Of a stretch of 20,867 nucleotides of DNA, positions 1-19,514 are shown one piece after another. The stretch covers positions 1-20,867 of IMG/VR virus record IMGVR_UViG_3300028666_000028; one strand, written 5' to 3'. The notes under the pieces are model-generated. The model was not told the origin of the DNA. It did not search any database and worked only from the letters and a program-made list of their open reading frames with translations. Position numbers and translations under genes: made by a program. The first letter of the stretch is position 1; each line of letters starts with the position of its first letter. The DNA is from a virus. Taxonomy: Duplodnaviria > Heunggongvirae > Uroviricota > Caudoviricetes.

Positions 1-1069
1 ATCCTTCTTTACGTTCAACGAGTATAAGTATTTGATCTTTATCAGATATTCTATTCTGTACAATATCTGTAATAGATTCAAGTAACTCTAATCCTCCATA
101 ATTACTTTTATATTCAGTCTGATAGTTACTAGAAGGTTTACCTTTAAGCTTAATGATATTAAATTCAACTGGTGTTAGATAACCTTCCTTAGTTGCTTTA
201 GATGCACTGTAATCATAAACTACTTCACCTGATACTCCCCACAAATCAAGAGTCTTTGAATCATTACGCAAGTAAGTACCAGATAGTCCCAAACGATAGT
301 AAATGCCCTGGAACAATGGCAAGAGCTTTGTAAAGGACTCAGAGGCGGAATGATGACATTCGTCCAGCACAAGCAAATCTATGCCGTCTATAAGCAGTTC
401 TGCTAAGCCTTGCTTCTGTAGGCTACCTAATGACTGTATTGTAATAATTCTAATAGGCTTAAGCTTTTTATTCTTTTTAATGTCCAAAGTAGACACTTTT
501 TGTACATTTTTTAATCCAAATGAATTTTCTAGTACATCGTAAGCTTGAGTCAAAAGTGCAGAAGATGGCACTACAAATAGAACATTGACTCCCAATTCTT
601 TTATAATTTGAGCAGCTATACGAGTCTTACCGGACCCTACTGCCATTTGAAGTACACCTCTAGCCCTTCCAATAAATGCATCCACTGCTTCTTTTTGGTA
701 GGGTCTAAGATCATGTGGTTTATTATTCCATCTAAATAGTTGATATGATTCAGGTTTAACTCTATCATCTATTTGTATATAGTTACCTAATAGATCTCTA
801 ACTAAATGAAGTAGTCCAGTTGGAAATCTATTGTACTCATCTAACCAACAAACTGTATCTGGACCTAGAGCTTTGAAGCGTTCTTTAAGAATAGAGATAA
901 GTGGACCTTGTCTTCTAGACTTAGCTCTTTGAAGTTGACTATAAATCATTTGCTTCTCTCTGATGACCTCTTCATTGGTATAAGTGAGCTTAGTCTTGAC
1001 AGATGCAAGTATATCTGTACTGAATGATTGCAGTTGACAAAATGAATTATTTATGATAAGTCTAGACAT
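1..1069 (-). CDS. SF2 DNA/RNA helicase (UvsW/ResIII-like DExH), 3' end outside window
   Basis: Hand translation from ATG at 1069 (AGGA upstream): Q-motif LRPYQKEA, Walker A AVGSGKT, motif Ia VVPSSALLTQ, motif II DECHH, motif III GLSGT; open to the left edge; absent from the ORF track because it is truncated. Confidence 0.92.
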   Translation of the reverse strand, partial: MSRLIINNSFCQLQSFSTDILASVKTKLTYTNEEVIREKQMIYSQLQRAKSRRQGPLISILKERFKALGPDTVCWLDEYNRFPTGLLHLVRDLLGNYIQIDDRVKPESYQLFRWNNKPHDLRPYQKEAVDAFIGRARGVLQMAVGSGKTRIAAQIIKELGVNVLFVVPSSALLTQAYDVLENSFGLKNVQKVSTLDIKKNKKLKPIRIITIQSLGSLQKQGLAELLIDGIDLLVLDECHHSASESFTKLLPLFQGIYYRLGLSGTYLRNDSKTLDLWGVSGEVVYDYSASKATKEGYLTPVEFNIIKLKGKPSSNYQTEYKSNYGGLELLESITDIVQNRISDKDQILILVERKEG

Positions 1070-1211
1070 ATATCCTATATTTCCATATATTTTTATCCAT
1101 TCTTAACCATAATTCTACGCTATAAATACTATTGTCATATATACTATGCTTTGTATATACTTCATAAGGCGGTATCCCATTATAACCTAATGATTTAACT
1201 AGACTATTCAC
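1062..1211 (-). CDS. micro-ORF family member (49 aa, MNSLVKSLGY...IWKYRIYV)
   Basis: GTG start overlapping the stop of the FGE gene, AGGA 7 nt upstream; both family motifs present. Confidence 0.65.
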   Translation of the reverse strand: MNSLVKSLGYNGIPPYEVYTKHSIYDNSIYSVELWLRMDKNIWKYRIYV

Positions 1212-1342
1212 AATTTTGTCCTCACGAGGCGGAACCCCAAATAGCTGCCCTGAGACTCAGGCGAGTAGTAGTTGCGATAAGCCGAACGCAACGCCTGCGC
1301 AACGTTGAACCAACTACCGCCACGGAGCACGCGGAACGAGCC
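1208..1342 (-). other. DGR variable region (VR) candidate
   Basis: Abrupt GC rise (77/132 nt, about 58%, over 1211-1342 versus roughly 30% in the rest of the gene); variable codons TTC, GTT, TAT, TAC, TAC, TCT, GGC, AGC, TAT are all of the NNY form expected from AAC/AAT templates. Confidence 0.75.
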
Positions 1343-1834
1343 TTTACTAGGTCCTTTAGGATCTATACCACCTTTTAACATTTCATCATACCAGTCTTCA
1401 GTCCACTCCCAAACATTGCCGTATATATCATATAAACCAAAGTAATTTGGGAGTTTACTGCCTACTTTAATAGTTTTACCTGAATTGAAATGAGCATACT
1501 TATGTAACTGGTCTTCATTGTCACCAAAGAAGTAATTAGAAGTTAAACCGCATCCTGCTGCATATTCCCATTCAGCTTCAGTAGGTAATCTATAATTATA
1601 TTCTTTATTAAGTTTATTACATTTTTTAATGAACTCTTGAACATCTAACCATGAAACTTGTTCAACTGGTAAATCTTTACCTTTAAAGTTAGATGGATTC
1701 TTGCCAATTATCTTAACATACTGTTCTTGAGTCATTGGTGTAACTTGCATCTCATATGGTTTAGTAATAAAAGTTAATACTTTATTAGTTCCCATTAAGA
1801 ATGGTCTAGGTAATATTAGTTTAAAGTTATTCAT
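1208..1834 (-). CDS. FGE/sulfatase-modifying-factor-like (CLec fold) protein, probable DGR target
   Basis: FLMG, RLPTEAEWEYAA, NYFGLYDIYGNVWEW, RVLRGGSW...LRSAYR...GFRL motifs; lacks the catalytic Cys pair of true FGE. Confidence 0.9.
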   Translation of the reverse strand: MNNFKLILPRPFLMGTNKVLTFITKPYEMQVTPMTQEQYVKIIGKNPSNFKGKDLPVEQVSWLDVQEFIKKCNKLNKEYNYRLPTEAEWEYAAGCGLTSNYFFGDNEDQLHKYAHFNSGKTIKVGSKLPNYFGLYDIYGNVWEWTEDWYDEMLKGGIDPKGPSKGSFRVLRGGSWFNVAQALRSAYRNYYSPESQGSYLGFRLVRTKL

Positions 1835-1983
1835 ATAATTATATTCTTATTAGTTCGACCATTACCTTCATATATCCAATATCTTCTATATTCTTGTCCT
1901 GTAGTCTCAATTACAACTCTATATAAATGATAAACACTTATATAGTACTCAAGTTCACCTAATCTGTTAACTAGTTTATTCAT
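1831..1983 (-). CDS. micro-ORF family member (50 aa, MNKLVNRLGE...YWIY)
   Basis: ATGA overlaps with both neighbours; family motifs; shares YYISVY...IET with the adjacent member. Confidence 0.7.
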   Translation of the reverse strand: MNKLVNRLGELEYYISVYHLYRVVIETTGQEYRRYWIYEGNGRTNKNIII

Positions 1984-2129
1984 CTTCTTAATCCTAACAA
2001 ATGAGGATGTATATTAATACCCCATACCCATGCATATGCTATAGGATTAATACAAGTCTCAATAGATATATGATGCCAGTAAACGCTAACGTAGTACTTA
2101 TAATTAAACTGTCTATTAAGCTCTGTCAT
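1980..2129 (-). CDS. micro-ORF family member (49 aa, MTELNRQFNY...WVWG)
   Basis: Family N-terminal motif; YYVSVY...IET matches the 1831-1983 member. Confidence 0.65.
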   Translation of the reverse strand: MTELNRQFNYKYYVSVYWHHISIETCINPIAYAWVWGINIHPHLLGLRR

Positions 2130-2437
2130 TTATATAACCTTTCACCTAGGTAACTGTTAACCCATTAACAAATAATAGTAGAACTGCTTAGGCTAATAGT
2201 AAATCAGCTAAAGCAAAACCTTATAAGGGATCTGTTAAGGATTTAGTTAGCCTTACGGCTTATTAGCCACCTTAACCAGAGAGCAAATATACAAGCGAAC
2301 CTGTTTGAATGCCCTTACAATATATGTACTACTGACAAGTTTAATTTCATAGGTGAAGCTTCTACTGTTGTATATTCGACTTCAGCTACTGTTTTTCTTA
2401 TCAGTTCGTGCCTTTAGTTAGCTTATTTAGAGACGAG
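2130..2437 (-). ncRNA. candidate structured non-coding RNA or cis element
   Basis: About 300 nt with no ATG-initiated ORF of note in an otherwise packed operon; several complementary segments (2141-2148/2350-2357, 2232-2240/2270-2279, GTAA-capped hairpin 2249-2260 on minus, 2155-2170). Confidence 0.3.
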
Positions 2438-2545
2438 CTAAGGCTTACTAGTTAAACGTCCTTTAATATAAAATCTTCCTGTGTAATAATAATAAAACTT
2501 ATAATCTTTATAACATAATCCTAACTGTGTGCATAGGTGATTCAT
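2438..2545 (-). CDS. micro-ORF family member (35 aa, MNHLCTQLGL...)
   Basis: Family N-terminal motif, Tyr-rich, lacks the late Trp. Confidence 0.55.
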   Translation of the reverse strand: MNHLCTQLGLCYKDYKFYYYYTGRFYIKGRLTSKP

Positions 2546-2546
2546 A

Positions 2547-2666
2547 TTATTTTCTAAAGTAACTCCAAATTGTTATATAGTTTATAGTTCGAATATATAC
2601 TCCATTTATGTTTGTATTTACTACAGTATACCCATAATAATTCATTTGTCTAACTAGAGCATTCAT
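2547..2666 (-). CDS. micro-ORF family member (39 aa, MNALVRQMNY...IWSY)
   Basis: ATGA overlap with upstream member; both motifs present. Confidence 0.65.
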   Translation of the reverse strand: MNALVRQMNYYGYTVVNTNINGVYIRTINYITIWSYFRK

Positions 2667-2776
2667 TTCTTTTCATACTTCCAAATACACTTATGAATGT
2701 AATAATCCCAAGTACATATATCTCCATTTGTACAAACTACATATCCCATACCCATAATACTATATAGCTGTTGCAT
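2663..2776 (-). CDS. micro-ORF family member (37 aa, MQQLYSIMGM...IWKY)
   Basis: Probable true start is the internal ATG of track ORF 2663..2866; divergent head, clear IWKY. Confidence 0.55.
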   Translation of the reverse strand: MQQLYSIMGMGYVVCTNGDICTWDYYIHKCIWKYEKK

Positions 2777-2924
2777 AATAGTTTCCTTGTACATTATATT
2801 GCCATATCCAATATCTTTGTTCATATACAGGATTTGGTACATCATAAAGTATATTGATAAAGCCACCTCTAGCTATACGAACATTGTACTGATACTTTCC
2901 AAACTGTTTTACTAGTTCACTCAT
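2760..2924 (-). CDS. micro-ORF family member (54 aa, MSELVKQFGK...YWIWQY)
   Basis: ATG directly follows the VWA gene stop (TAAATG); both motifs present. Confidence 0.7.
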   Translation of the reverse strand: MSELVKQFGKYQYNVRIARGGFINILYDVPNPVYEQRYWIWQYNVQGNYYATAI

Positions 2925-4124
2925 TTACTTAATCCTTACACTATTACCATAAGGAGGTTTAACATCTGAATTAAGAACCCATAAACATTTATAGGTTACA
3001 TCATTCCTATTAGGAAAGTCTGCATAGCCATCTGTTAAATAGATTACACCTTTATATCTCTCTTCAATTGCTAACTCATGTACAGGCACAAAGCTAGTAC
3101 CACCTGCGCATACTCGTTTAGCTTCAAAGCCCTTCTTATAATCTTCTTTGTGATGAATATAAGTATCAAAGTAAGCTACTTCAATATTTACCATTCCAGT
3201 GTTATAGATAGCATCTACTTCTGCAAAACACTTTTTAATATCTTCGTCAGACATACTACCAGACATATCAATACCGATTAGAAGATCTAATTTAGGCAGC
3301 TTCTTAACACCAGGTAGTTTACCTCTAAAACGTCTGTTAACTTTTTTCCAAGTGTTCTTAGTCTTAACATCGACTAAGCTTTGCATAAACTGTCTGAGTA
3401 CAATATGCCAAGGAACTTGTTTACTTGCTTCGTGATCTAATAGGAATTTCTCAATCTCTCTAGGAGTGTTACCAGCTGATAAACACTTAGCTCGTTTAGC
3501 TGCGTTAGCTGCTATTTCATCCATCATCTTCTCATCACGAGTAGACTCGGTAAAGTAATCGTGATCTTGATGTGGTTGACCGTCTCCACTTCCTTCCTCG
3601 TCCCCTGGCTTACCTTCACCAGGTTTACTTTTGCCTTTCATAATTTTACCCTGACTCTTTAACTTAGCATAGTAGTTAACCCATGAGTCTTGATTATGAC
3701 AATTAAAGTCTTGAGGATATACACCTCTAAACTGTGCACCCTTTGGTGCAGGTAGTCCAAGCTTATCACTCTTAACTAATTCAGATATTCCTGGATTGAT
3801 TTCCATATCCATTGCAACATTCGCCATCATGTAGTTAGCTTCAATGCCTAACTTATCTGATATAGCTTCAATCTGCTTTAGCTGAGTCTGCTTAATGTGA
3901 TCTTTATACAAGTGTTGTAGTTCATGTATAAGTAATCCTGCTTGCTCTGCTACTGTGAAGTTACTAAACTTCTCAGGATTAATAGTAATCTCAATTCTAG
4001 TTTGCACCTTTACATAAGCTACATACTCTGACTTCTCGTCTAGATTGATTTTCGCTTGTTGCAACAATGCATAATAGTAGGGATAGTTACTTAATAGATA
4101 TAATTGAAGCTGCTTTATGTCCAT
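2925..4124 (-). CDS. VWA-domain protein with N-terminal HExxH putative metallopeptidase domain (DUF2201-like), MoxR partner
   Basis: HELQH motif; MIDAS GIDMSGSMS, GGTSF, YLTDGY; start placed at ATG 4124 behind a GAGGA Shine-Dalgarno. Confidence 0.88.
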   Translation of the reverse strand: MDIKQLQLYLLSNYPYYYALLQQAKINLDEKSEYVAYVKVQTRIEITINPEKFSNFTVAEQAGLLIHELQHLYKDHIKQTQLKQIEAISDKLGIEANYMMANVAMDMEINPGISELVKSDKLGLPAPKGAQFRGVYPQDFNCHNQDSWVNYYAKLKSQGKIMKGKSKPGEGKPGDEEGSGDGQPHQDHDYFTESTRDEKMMDEIAANAAKRAKCLSAGNTPREIEKFLLDHEASKQVPWHIVLRQFMQSLVDVKTKNTWKKVNRRFRGKLPGVKKLPKLDLLIGIDMSGSMSDEDIKKCFAEVDAIYNTGMVNIEVAYFDTYIHHKEDYKKGFEAKRVCAGGTSFVPVHELAIEERYKGVIYLTDGYADFPNRNDVTYKCLWVLNSDVKPPYGNSVRIK

Positions 4125-9898: not shown

Positions 9899-10222
9899 TT
9901 ACCATCTTAATGTTATAACTCCAGCTGACAATAAACTTCCAACTCCGCCGCTAATCAAACTTCTTTTAGTATCACTAGGGAAGCCTTCAGATGCCTTATA
10001 GGCAACGTTTGCGGCAGTTGATACTGCAACGCCTACAACTGTACACAAAGTCTTATCTGAAGGGCTATTGATTCGTTCGCAAGCTAACTCTGTTACATCT
10101 GTTATAGCATATGCTCCGCCTAAATGTGCAGTGATGTGCATTAAGTTATCTTGTGTAGTATCTGCATAGCAAGTATTGCATATGCAAATAAGTAATAGTA
10201 TTAATACTTGTAATATCGCCAT
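9899..10222 (-). CDS. secreted or membrane protein with signal peptide
   Basis: Hydrophobic N-terminus ending CYA-D; Gly/Ala-rich hydrophobic helices. Confidence 0.7.
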   Translation of the reverse strand: MAILQVLILLLICICNTCYADTTQDNLMHITAHLGGAYAITDVTELACERINSPSDKTLCTVVGVAVSTAANVAYKASEGFPSDTKRSLISGGVGSLLSAGVITLRW

Positions 10223-10308
10223 AGTCCTTGTCCTGTTATAATAATTACATTAAATTTACTTCCTACATGGTAAGATTCATTTATTAAATGTTCAACTAAT
10301 TCATTCAT
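10201..10308 (-). CDS. micro-ORF family member (35 aa, MNELVEHLIN...LWRY)
   Basis: ATGA overlap with the sigma-r4 gene stop; both motifs recognisable. Confidence 0.6.
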   Translation of the reverse strand: MNELVEHLINESYHVGSKFNVIIITGQGLWRYYKY

Positions 10309-10601
10309 ATAAAATCCTTAAGATTATCTTTAAATTTATGAAATCTTTTAAGTTTTTTTATACTTTTATCATATATGAAATGTATTCTAGCTTCTGTTAC
10401 TTCATATCTATTAGCTATTTCACTAATACTCCAAGGATAGTTTCCAGTTAAACCAAAATACATAATTAATAATTTAACTTCAAAAGGTCTTAAAAGTAAA
10501 CTTAATTGATTAATTACAATCTTATTTAATTCTTTATTTGAATATAATTCATCTGGACCAATTAATTCTTTTAAAAATGGATTGTATTTAATTTTACTCA
10601 T
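10305..10601 (-). CDS. stand-alone sigma70 region-4-like HTH protein
   Basis: LRPFEVKLLIMYFGLTGNYPWSISEIANRYEVTEARIHFIYDKSIKKLKR follows the RpoD region-4 pattern; no region 2; start MSKIK by ATGA overlap. Confidence 0.8.
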   Translation of the reverse strand: MSKIKYNPFLKELIGPDELYSNKELNKIVINQLSLLLRPFEVKLLIMYFGLTGNYPWSISEIANRYEVTEARIHFIYDKSIKKLKRFHKFKDNLKDFI

Positions 10602-10671
10602 ATAATAAACCATATTAATACCATAATCCAAACTACAACCCAAAGTAAACAAGCAAACACATCGTCATTCA

Positions 10672-10848
10672 TTAGTTACCCTTCAATTCAGCTTCTAAGT
10701 TATCATAGTAATCAGAATATGTCAAGTCGTCTAGTTCCATATCAGTTAGATTAAAGTCACATTCTAGACATTCAGTCCATTCATTGAATGTATCAAGATA
10801 ACGTTGACCTTCTGCACAATCGCAGTTTTCATAGTGTATACGTTTCAT
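10672..10848 (-). CDS. small acidic Cys-containing protein (58 aa)
   Basis: Hand translation MKRIHYENCDCAEG...CLEC... Confidence 0.55.
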   Translation of the reverse strand: MKRIHYENCDCAEGQRYLDTFNEWTECLECDFNLTDMELDDLTYSDYYDNLEAELKGN

Positions 10849-13850: not shown

Positions 13851-14171
13851 TTAGATTGACTCCTCAACATAGAAGTGCTCAATTGTAGTCTTAGGCTTCT
13901 TATTATGCAGTGTAACCCACGTTTCACGCGTAAAGTATTCATTGCAATCTTCATACTTAACTTGCTTCTCAAATACCCATCCTATTGAAACTACACTTCC
14001 ATCTAGCTTCTCAATGAATACTTTACCTGTACATCTTCCGTTATCCTTCTGTAAAGCTTTAAAGAGTATAGCTTTACTATCCGTGAAAGTCTCATATACA
14101 TTGCTTTCACCTAAACCAGCATTATTAGTCTTATCAATCCAACATTCATTAATCATTAAGTTAGTTTTCAT
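13851..14171 (-). CDS. phage hypothetical protein (GRCTGKVF...IGWVF...ETWV)
   Basis: AAGGAG Shine-Dalgarno, 106 aa ORF. Confidence 0.8.
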   Translation of the reverse strand: MKTNLMINECWIDKTNNAGLGESNVYETFTDSKAILFKALQKDNGRCTGKVFIEKLDGSVVSIGWVFEKQVKYEDCNEYFTRETWVTLHNKKPKTTIEHFYVEESI

Positions 14172-14184
14172 TGTATAATTCTCC

Positions 14185-14397
14185 TTACTTAGTTATCATA
14201 ACGTATTGTTTACCTAAGCGCAATACCTTGCCGCATTTCATTAGCCTAACAAACTCCTCAAAGCCAACCAATATCTCTTTAAACAAAGGTATCTTGTATC
14301 CTTCTAACGTTAGCTCATATAAGTGTATTCTCACCATACAACTATACAATGCAACAACCATGCCAACTTTTAACGCTCTAATAGCCTCTATAAGCAA
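14185..14397 (-). CDS. possible hypothetical protein (70 aa)
   Basis: ORF track only; non-ATG start and no clear Shine-Dalgarno. Confidence 0.35.
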   Translation of the reverse strand: MLIEAIRALKVGMVVALYSCMVRIHLYELTLEGYKIPLFKEILVGFEEFVRLMKCGKVLRLGKQYVMITK

Positions 14398-14947
14398 TCT
14401 TCTATCTTAATGTTACACTTTACGTTCACTATTGCCTATAACAAAGCCTAATATGGTATATAACGACAATCTTTGTTACCTTAACTTGTATACATATAAG
14501 CAACTATAGTTAACAGTAAAAGCAAACAGTTAGCTAAGTCATGCTATAAGCAAGCTATAGACTGTATACTCACGTTATAAGCTATCTATATACTGTTAAC
14601 CAATAGACTGTATACAGTCAGCAGCAACCGCCGTACAGCCAACGCAACATTGGTCAACGGCAAACGGTATAGGTTTACAGTTACCATGCAATCTTTATCT
14701 ATGTAATGTTTGCATATGTAGAGTTTGCAGTGTATAAGTACGGTACACAACACGCTGCATGCAAGTATCATGCCAATAGTCAACAGCTACCCCCCTAATG
14801 GACCATAGGGGTTAACGCTGAGGGTTAGCCTATATGGTTGCCAGAGTGTGGGTGCACAGTTTAAATAAAAGAATGCAGTATAGGTCAATTGTGTACGTTT
14901 ACAGTGTACTATATGCTAGTATACCCCTAGATGGGTTATACAGTGTG

Positions 14948-18629: not shown

Positions 18630-18968
18630 ATGAAACATGTTAAATCACTTTTATCAAGATTACTTTATTTTCTTCGTCTAACAGATGATGATGGTTTGCT
18701 TTCTATTACTCATATCGCATGTATAATTGTATTAGTTAAAATTGCATTGAATCCTAATCCTTCAATTATAGATATGGGATCTTTACTAGTTACATTAAGT
18801 TTATACTATGGAAAACAACATCTCAATAAAAGTAAACAAGGTATAACTGACGAAAATAAACAAGCTATAGAAGATATTAAAGTTCAAGTACAGGGAATTA
18901 AAGATAAGACTGCAGGAATGGCCGCTCGTATAGGATTAACTGCACCCACTATTATTGGCGGTAAATAA
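18630..18968 (+). CDS. holin-like membrane protein
   Basis: Two hydrophobic segments after LTDDDGLLSIT and a charged C-terminal tail; function inferred from topology only. Confidence 0.45.
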   Translation: MKHVKSLLSRLLYFLRLTDDDGLLSITHIACIIVLVKIALNPNPSIIDMGSLLVTLSLYYGKQHLNKSKQGITDENKQAIEDIKVQVQGIKDKTAGMAARIGLTAPTIIGGK

Positions 18969-18971
18969 TTT

Positions 18972-19514
18972 ATGAAAATATGTTATCTTTGTAAAGTATT
19001 CAAAGATGTACTAGATTTTCCTAGAAATAAATCTACTAAAGATGGATTATCTGGACGTTGTAAACAATGTGATAATAAATTATGTTCAAATTGGAGAAGT
19101 AAAAATAAAGATAATAAAAAACAGTATTATCAAAAGAATAAGAAGAAATTATTAGAATATGATAATAATTATCGTAAAGAACGTAAATTAAAAGATATAA
19201 ATTTTAAACTTATATGTAATTTACGTACTAGATTAAAGATGGCATTAAAACAAAATAATAAATCAGGTTCTGCAGTTAGAGATCTAGGTTGTACCATTGA
19301 AAAATTAAAGGTATATCTAGAGTCCAAATGGCTTCCAGGTATGAATTGGTCTAATCATGGTAATAAAGAAGGTCAATGGTCTATTGATCATATTATTCCT
19401 TTATCTAAAGTAGATTTAACTAATAAAGAACAATTCTTAAAAGTAAATCATTATACTAATCTTCAACCAATGTGGCATATTGATAATATTAAGAAGTTTA
19501 ATAAATATGAATAA
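18972..19514 (+). CDS. HNH homing endonuclease with N-terminal zinc finger
   Basis: CYLC...CKQC; LGCT...GMNWSNHG...WSIDHIIP...HYTNLQPMW..DN..K. Confidence 0.88.
   Translation: MKICYLCKVFKDVLDFPRNKSTKDGLSGRCKQCDNKLCSNWRSKNKDNKKQYYQKNKKKLLEYDNNYRKERKLKDINFKLICNLRTRLKMALKQNNKSGSAVRDLGCTIEKLKVYLESKWLPGMNWSNHGNKEGQWSIDHIIPLSKVDLTNKEQFLKVNHYTNLQPMWHIDNIKKFNKYE

Follow-up and report, generated by a model that had tools for sequence, protein, structure and literature searches.

Among solved structures, the closest relative of the phage protein described here, both by sequence and by fold, is TvpA of Treponema denticola (PDB 2Y3C), a lipoprotein that is served by a diversity-generating retroelement (DGR) in its own genome. 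A phage-borne system with which it can be compared is that of the Bordetella phage BPP-1 (mtd-avd-TR-brt), whose target also has a C-type-lectin fold, carries its variable region (VR) at the 3′ end, has GC-rich constant flanks and is diversified by the rewriting of AAC-type codons. All of these traits appear to recur at our locus, whereas others are found in BPP-1 only: its cassette lies beside the target, a GC-rich inverted repeat follows the IMH and the target is a tail-fibre receptor-binding protein. Not every described target sits beside its writer. The remote targets of Treponema and Legionella (PMC5758913) and the trans-diversified loci of Thiohalocapsa PB-PSB1, for which trans use inside one genome has been described (PMC10907252), resemble ours in having no adjacent reverse transcriptase (RT) or template repeat (TR), but in those systems the writer is on the chromosome of its target and has a TR that matches the VR, neither of which holds for our phage. 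In the laboratory, Avd-TR-RT functions in trans from a plasmid (PMC5758913). Wu et al. have argued that phage-associated DGRs should have no remote targets, co-inheritance failing (PMC5758913).

The window that we analyzed covers positions 1-20,867 of a phage genome of 84,867 nt in IMG/VR, from soil, the source metagenomes being rhizosphere. CheckV puts the completeness of the genome at 100%, and its ends overlap by 127 nt, a sign of a closed assembly; GC content is 33.6% over the whole genome and 0.323 over the window. The genome has only one gene of the FGE-sulfatase type (the FGE gene below), and the features that concern us are these:

1208..1834, minus strand: FGE-sulfatase/C-type-lectin-fold gene, 208 aa, stand-alone
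1223..1342, minus strand: variable region (VR), 40 codons, GSFRVLRGGSW...LGFRLV, 61% GC, 10.8% A on the coding strand
1310..1342, minus strand: 5′ GC-rich constant block, GGC TCG .. CGC GTG .. CGT GGC GGT AGT TGG
1238..1336, minus strand: putative mutagenised core, 18 codons with an amino acid different from that of the sister lineage L002
1218..1237, minus strand: 3′ constant block, GGG TTC CGC CTC GTG AGG AC, at the IMH position
1062..1211, minus strand: micro-ORF of 49 aa, its start overlapping the FGE stop (GTGA)
2..1069, minus strand: ResIII/DEAD-type helicase (Pfam PF04851, E 7e-29), downstream neighbour of the FGE gene
1072..2952, minus strand: accessory insertion of ~1.9 kb with the FGE gene and micro-ORFs

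The first-pass annotation, made from the letters of the window, had put the FGE gene beside a helicase, and so it is: the gene is placed in the replication module, with a MoxR-like AAA+/DUF2201 pair on one side and the ResIII helicase on the other, on the strand opposite to a plus-strand ORF block that begins near 17 kb. The helicase gene crosses the record start into the genome end, and its product is 79% identical to that of L002. The micro-ORF at 1062-1211 ends at the helicase start and belongs to a family of MNxLVxQLGY-type micro-proteins that fills the region; because its start overlaps the FGE stop, there is neither intergenic space nor a GC-rich inverted repeat 3′ of the VR. An Rfam scan of the window returned no family, a terminator scan of 900-3000 returned no terminator, and no integrase was found in the phage genome.

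Residues 27-205 of the 208 match Pfam FGE-sulfatase (PF03781, E 1.5e-39), and the translation of the ORF at 1208-1834, which ends in ...RGGSWFNVAQALRSAYRNYYSPESQGSYLGFRLVRTKL*, reproduces the C-terminus reported by the first-pass annotation. In a PDB sequence search the best match was TvpA (2Y3C, E 1.7e-28), whereas true formylglycine-generating enzymes scored only about 1e-19; the AlphaFold2 model (pLDDT 97) had 2Y3C as its top Foldseek match (TM 0.90, 32% identity), and the C-terminal GGSW...GFR segment that holds the variable residues aligns between the two proteins residue for residue. True FGEs (human SUMF1/FGE, PDB 1Y1E, and others) have the fold in common (TM 0.84-0.86) but carry their catalytic Cys pair in the segment equivalent to the VR; our protein has no Cys beyond residue 95 and, therefore, lacks that pair. 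By sequence and model, the predicted product is a bare lectin-fold binding domain and not a formylglycine-generating enzyme. As in DGR targets, the C-type-lectin/FGE-sulfatase fold is C-terminal and the variable residues fall within the last ~40 codons. The protein had also been described as free of a tail-fibre extension or signal peptide, with which the translation and the span of the Pfam match agree, the N-terminus showing no evident extension or signal-like stretch. It differs from TvpA in being a bare 208-aa domain encoded in a phage replication module, in a genome without a DGR. An intracellular ligand for it would fit both this location and the absence of an anchoring domain.

What sets the 3′ end of the gene apart is its composition. 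The reported contrast of about 58% GC in the last ~135 nt with a background near 30% was borne out (0.578 for 1208-1342, 0.608 for the core at 1223-1342 and 0.309 for the remainder of the gene), and only 0.07% of the 135-nt windows of the genome have a GC content of at least 0.58. Within the VR, GC3 is 0.6-0.7, as against 0.1-0.35 (about 0.2) upstream in the gene. On the coding strand, third-position A stands at 0.05 in the VR vs. 0.37 upstream, and third-position T at 0.23 vs. 0.42. Could this be simply the ordinary C-terminus of an FGE-sulfatase domain, whose high GC and fast amino-acid change come from exposed loops and a motif rich in Arg, Gly, Ala, Ser and Trp, without any DGR? Such a reading is in keeping with the family-wide occurrence of the GGSW...RSAxR...GFR motif and with variation that falls in the same columns in every homologue. 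However, the anomaly is synonymous and strand-asymmetric, A being lost and T kept, so that it is attributable neither to amino-acid composition nor to GC-biased conversion. The same signature was surveyed in 80 metagenomic loci with homologues and in 80 viral loci. Among homologues it is bimodal, and it is absent from L018, L069, L075, L079 and L137, equally AT-rich contexts included; since family members without the signature exist, the fold itself does not impose it.

A relative of the protein, P0002 (69% amino acid identity), is encoded on the Logan contigs L002 and L003 in an unchanged gene order. The neighbor genes in L002 are 79-96% identical to those of the window, and a GC island stands at the matching place in its FGE gene. 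Both flanking blocks are conserved in this sister lineage, GC-rich constant flanks being a described trait of DGRs (PMC5758913): the 5′ block (1310-1342) is the same apart from two variable codons, and the 3′ block (1218-1237) is conserved at the nucleotide level, not only in L002 but also in L004, an unrelated phage, and in three phage genes from IMG/VR. In the form GGN TTC CGC CTN GTG AGG AC, the 3′ block shows the same synonymous choices in the window, in L004 (~10697-10717), in L186, in L187 and in L190, and the occurrence of such a block in unrelated phages resembles what a shared IMH family would produce.

The VR itself is another matter, as 18 of its 40 codons differ in amino acid between the window and L002 (F167, L170, F176-N-V, Q180, A181, Y186, N188-Y-Y, E193, S194, Q195, G196-S-Y and L199). 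In these 18 codons, positions 1-2 have changed at 26 of 36 sites and position 3 at only 4 of 18 (p=0.001). The third base is C in nine of the 18 codons of the window and in 11 of 18 in L002, with a background for C of 10-12% (10% for the window), which amounts to NNC enrichments with p=3e-5 and 7e-7, respectively; it is never A. The claim that variable positions carry NNY codons holds for 13 of the 18 and fails for the remaining five. This codon-position pattern is the outcome to be expected if AAC-type codons were rewritten A-to-N, and it is not what ordinary mutation would yield, whether selection were relaxed or positive. While the variable positions have diverged (72%) about as far as the four-fold sites of the gene body (66%), the neutral level, as a reading without a DGR would have it, that reading is at odds with variable codons in which third positions are conserved and C-rich and positions 1-2 are saturated.

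Three homologues from verified DGR loci offer a further comparison. Downstream of the L023 target come an HRDC gene, an RVT_1 reverse transcriptase and the TR, and 23 of the 26 TR/VR mismatches are at TR adenines; L053 has the target, bAvd and a TR, and L005 a TR, and all three show the signature. Between their targets and the window protein identity is 33-45%, and the VR architecture is the same. Because no cognate TR is available, we assessed the adenine footprint through the TR of the homologue L023: codons with a TR adenine at position 1 or 2 differ between the window and L002 in 17 of 20 cases, vs. 1 of 20 for the others (p=4e-7). The variable positions called in the first-pass annotation are borne out in that the L023 TR reads N there, and the island in the window starts at the G-S-x-R-V codon, the codon position at which the L023 TR starts. 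This match between the 5′ edge of the island and the edge of a verified TR, together with the existence of signature-free family members, speaks further against an origin without a DGR, which we consider very improbable. We hold with high confidence that the ligand-binding tip of this TvpA-like protein is encoded by a genuine DGR-type variable region, 1223-1342. Where the three verified loci differ is in having a TR, RT or accessory gene no more than 2 kb away and, 60-85 nt past the VR in all three, a strong GC hairpin. The window has none of these, and neither in it nor in L002 was a GC-rich inverted repeat detected 3′ of the VR (fold z-scores of +0.4 to +0.8); an inverted repeat downstream of the VR occurs in just 34% of DGRs (PMC5758913).

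That the phage itself encodes no DGR, with RT, Avd and TR all absent, is close to certain. The first-pass annotation had noted neither a TR nor an RT in the window, and the same is true of the complete genome. A six-frame search of the complete genome for RVT_1 gave nothing at E<=10, nor did bAvd (PF22296) at the same threshold, and the L023 RT protein used as a query had no match in it. The BLASTN comparison of the VR with the full genome that the annotation had proposed as a check, run with 7-nt words and permissive scoring, returned the VR alone. Two other GC islands of the genome, at 23055-23331 and 58834-59449, were considered as TR candidates and rejected, being Pro/Gly/Ala-rich low-complexity coding sequence. 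In the flanks of the FGE genes of the window and of L002, stop-to-stop reading frames held micro-ORFs only and no RT remnant, and the ~15 kb surrounding the L002 gene had no cassette.

A major question arising from these observations is "What wrote this variable region?" Did the phage lineage once have its own Avd-TR-RT and lose it recently, leaving a VR that is now ordinary, fixed coding sequence? The genome without RT, TR or Avd and the lack of a downstream hairpin are as such a frozen relic would leave them, as is an allele identical in two samples (see below). Additionally, the GC3 of the VR (0.67) is below that of many active VRs (0.8-0.94), and among relatives there are the viral homologues L109/L110 with a TR-like repeat directly 3′ and one phage, G011, with an RT. 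How old such a loss could be is limited by the comparison with L002. At four-fold sites the neighbor genes of the two lineages differ in 49% of cases (174/354) and the FGE gene body in 66% (25/38), and in the VR six of 18 such sites differ without a single difference involving A, although neutral drift from an A-free start predicts 4.5-7.8 gains of A (P<=0.006). The exclusion of A thus persisted after the split, which rules out a relic orphaned before the window and L002 lineages separated; having lasted through 49% four-fold divergence, it makes any loss much younger than that split. Moreover, as the VR of L002 has been independently randomised and no synonymous A has crept in, a template was still acting after the lineages split. 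The first-pass annotation had proposed that the target is either served remotely or a relic: both alternatives stand, the second in the form of a recent loss, and the old relic is excluded. Even a recent loss is quite unlikely, however, in view of flanks without any RT remnant, the 15 kb of L002 without a cassette, and a count of related phages (0 of 9 near-complete ones with an RT) that would call for losses both recent and repeated in most lineages.

That count comes from the wider family. The nearest homologues, P0003-P0005 and P0033, are encoded among small early genes in phage-like arrays; all have the island and none has a TR or RT in reach. Relatives are encoded on 398 IMG/VR stretches, and about 90% of the 80 that were kept show A3<=0.08. 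Among 31 long IMG/VR records only one or two have RVT_1, the clear RT being that of G011; none of the nine records at least 90% complete that carry a homologous gene has an RT, and none of six near-complete records has bAvd. In G034 (100% complete) there is no second copy of its own VR. The cultured Microcystis phage Ma-LMM01 also belongs here: its gp037 (L098, 1498-2238) has a VR island with GC3 of 0.65-0.75, A3 of 0-0.1 and NNY variable codons, its genome has no RT, and a TR pattern for its VR had no match in GTDB genomes. We found no literature linking Ma-LMM01 to DGRs. A repeat upstream of gp037 (L098, ~1140-1290) was rejected as a TR, as it is a degraded partial copy of the gene. Ma-LMM01, G019, G034, G030 and G007 are unrelated phages with RT-less genomes; their proteins are about 40-50% identical to that of the window, and the genes share its VR island and A3 exclusion. 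These observations suggest that the RT-less state is usual for this gene family in phages.

Some phages carry several copies of the gene. The complete 103-kb phage G019 (IMGVR_UViG_3300032177_000002), which has terminal repeats, encodes two FGE paralogues (L143, 2920-3642 and 4614-5336). Over the last ~330 nt only 17 nt distinguish the two, every one of them in a canonical variable codon; G019 has no RT, Avd, TR or third copy, and a TR pattern scanned across IMG/VR matched only G019 itself. In L004, an unrelated 87-kb phage contig, three FGE paralogues are found in the early region (10001-10738, 13961-14761 and 18649-19359), each with its own VR island and with different constant nucleotides, and L180/L181 have five paralogues.

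Could the writer, then, be supplied in trans? If so, the VR would have been laid down from an adenine-poor TR by A-to-N mutagenesis at AAC-like codons; the DGR of the host cell or of a co-resident element would make mutagenised cDNA from a matching TR, and during infection this cDNA would replace the phage VR via the two GC-rich constant blocks. We infer both the location of the writer and whether it continues to write, and among the readings considered here we favor supply in trans by a host or co-resident DGR, a real possibility, though short of probable. The general RT-less state of these phages, the VR-only differences in G019, the lasting exclusion of A and the demonstration of trans action in the laboratory all point in this direction. 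Against it are the lack of a downstream hairpin in the window and L002, the alleles fixed between samples, and the multi-paralogue phages (three copies in L004, five in L180), whose differing constant nucleotides would need several templates. Also, with no integrase found, the phage has no prophage stage that would let a host DGR act on the gene as on a remote target in the chromosome.

A matching TR, moreover, was not found by exact scans of JGI metagenomes, GTDB and IMG/VR. Exact patterns that allowed either the VR base or A had no match in JGI metagenome contigs, which are expected, without confirmation, to include the source sample, or in GTDB species representatives, and stricter block-based and TR-3′-end patterns had none in IMG/VR; these are weak negatives, because a single non-adenine mismatch hides a TR from such scans. 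Among the 190 loci that were fetched, no TR fits the VR of the window.

Alternatively, was the tip imported finished? A DGR would then have written a cellular homologue, and ready alleles would have been recombined or converted into the phage via the constant blocks, with no cDNA involved. It is consistent with such an origin that the gene lies in the accessory insertion (1072-2952), which is absent from the related phages G002 and G001; in G002 (L096), a related IMG/VR phage, the helicase-DUF2201 gap is only ~300 nt and has no FGE gene, and IMG/VR relatives of the phage identified by DnaB had neither an FGE gene nor an RT. Between the window and L002, the gene body has also diverged further (69% amino acid identity; 25/38 four-fold sites) than its neighbors (79-96%; 174/354), the differing constants of paralogues within one phage fit separate donors, and gp037 of Ma-LMM01 is annotated as a "kinase", a label that would suit a gene copied from a cyanobacterial kinase-CLec DGR target. 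On the other hand, among 5.8 billion proteins the closest cellular homologue of the window protein is only about 50-54% identical, and the nearest relatives of the window protein all occur in phage-like contexts. A double crossover would have homology blocks of just 33 and 20 nt to work with, and the identical flanks and VR-only differences of the G019 paralogues are explained more simply by writing after a duplication within the phage. We consider an imported, finished tip unlikely.

If supply in trans is the right reading, its broadest form would be that phages outsource hypermutation: a phage of virulent type keeps the target only, and a cellular or co-resident DGR rewrites the binding tip. 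We put this forward as a doubtful proposal. Equally tentative is the extension that Ma-LMM01, G019 and other RT-less phages would be alike in this respect and that the early protein would act inside the cell. If true, the phage would have a diversified early protein directed, e.g., against variable host defence or sensor proteins, and not a receptor binder. Target, fold and footprint are those of a textbook DGR; what is unusual is to find them in a complete, apparently virulent phage without a retroelement, although for this early-gene family that is seemingly the rule. DGR surveys begin at the RT and then turn to nearby template/target pairs, so that targets on RT-less genomes are invisible to them (PMC8144416). 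Should the writer be cellular, the constant blocks of the VR would serve as a sequence tag linking phage and host, DGR activity would shape viral besides cellular proteins, and hypervariable, probably intracellular early phage proteins would become candidate counter-defence binders. Should the tips have been imported finished or be frozen, they would still testify to repeated gene flow into the early regions of phages from DGR targets.

As to variation within populations, the VR allele of the window recurs without a single difference in a second rhizosphere sample (X3 contig, 1051-1322), and the source run X1 showed no variants over the VR, in assembled contigs that cannot display minor variants; the contigs of run X2 leave 1180-1308 uncovered. 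The L002 and L003 alleles, from two separate runs, are the same as each other. The allele looks fixed in the samples at hand, and these contigs give no hint that hypervariation is ongoing. By protein, close relatives are lacking in IMG/VR and none exceeds 52% identity in metagenomes; the protein clusters have one member each. Among the contigs of source run X1 there is also a separate one of 1 kb (depth 5) that carries another FGE-type VR; its 3′ end matches 31 of 35 nt of window 1218-1252, and it may be a related target from a different genome in that community. Finally, upstream of the FGE gene, amid the poorly conserved micro-ORF region, ~170 nt of the window (2247-2417) are conserved with L002 (4036-4197); this stretch has no Rfam match and is a candidate small RNA or conserved small ORF.
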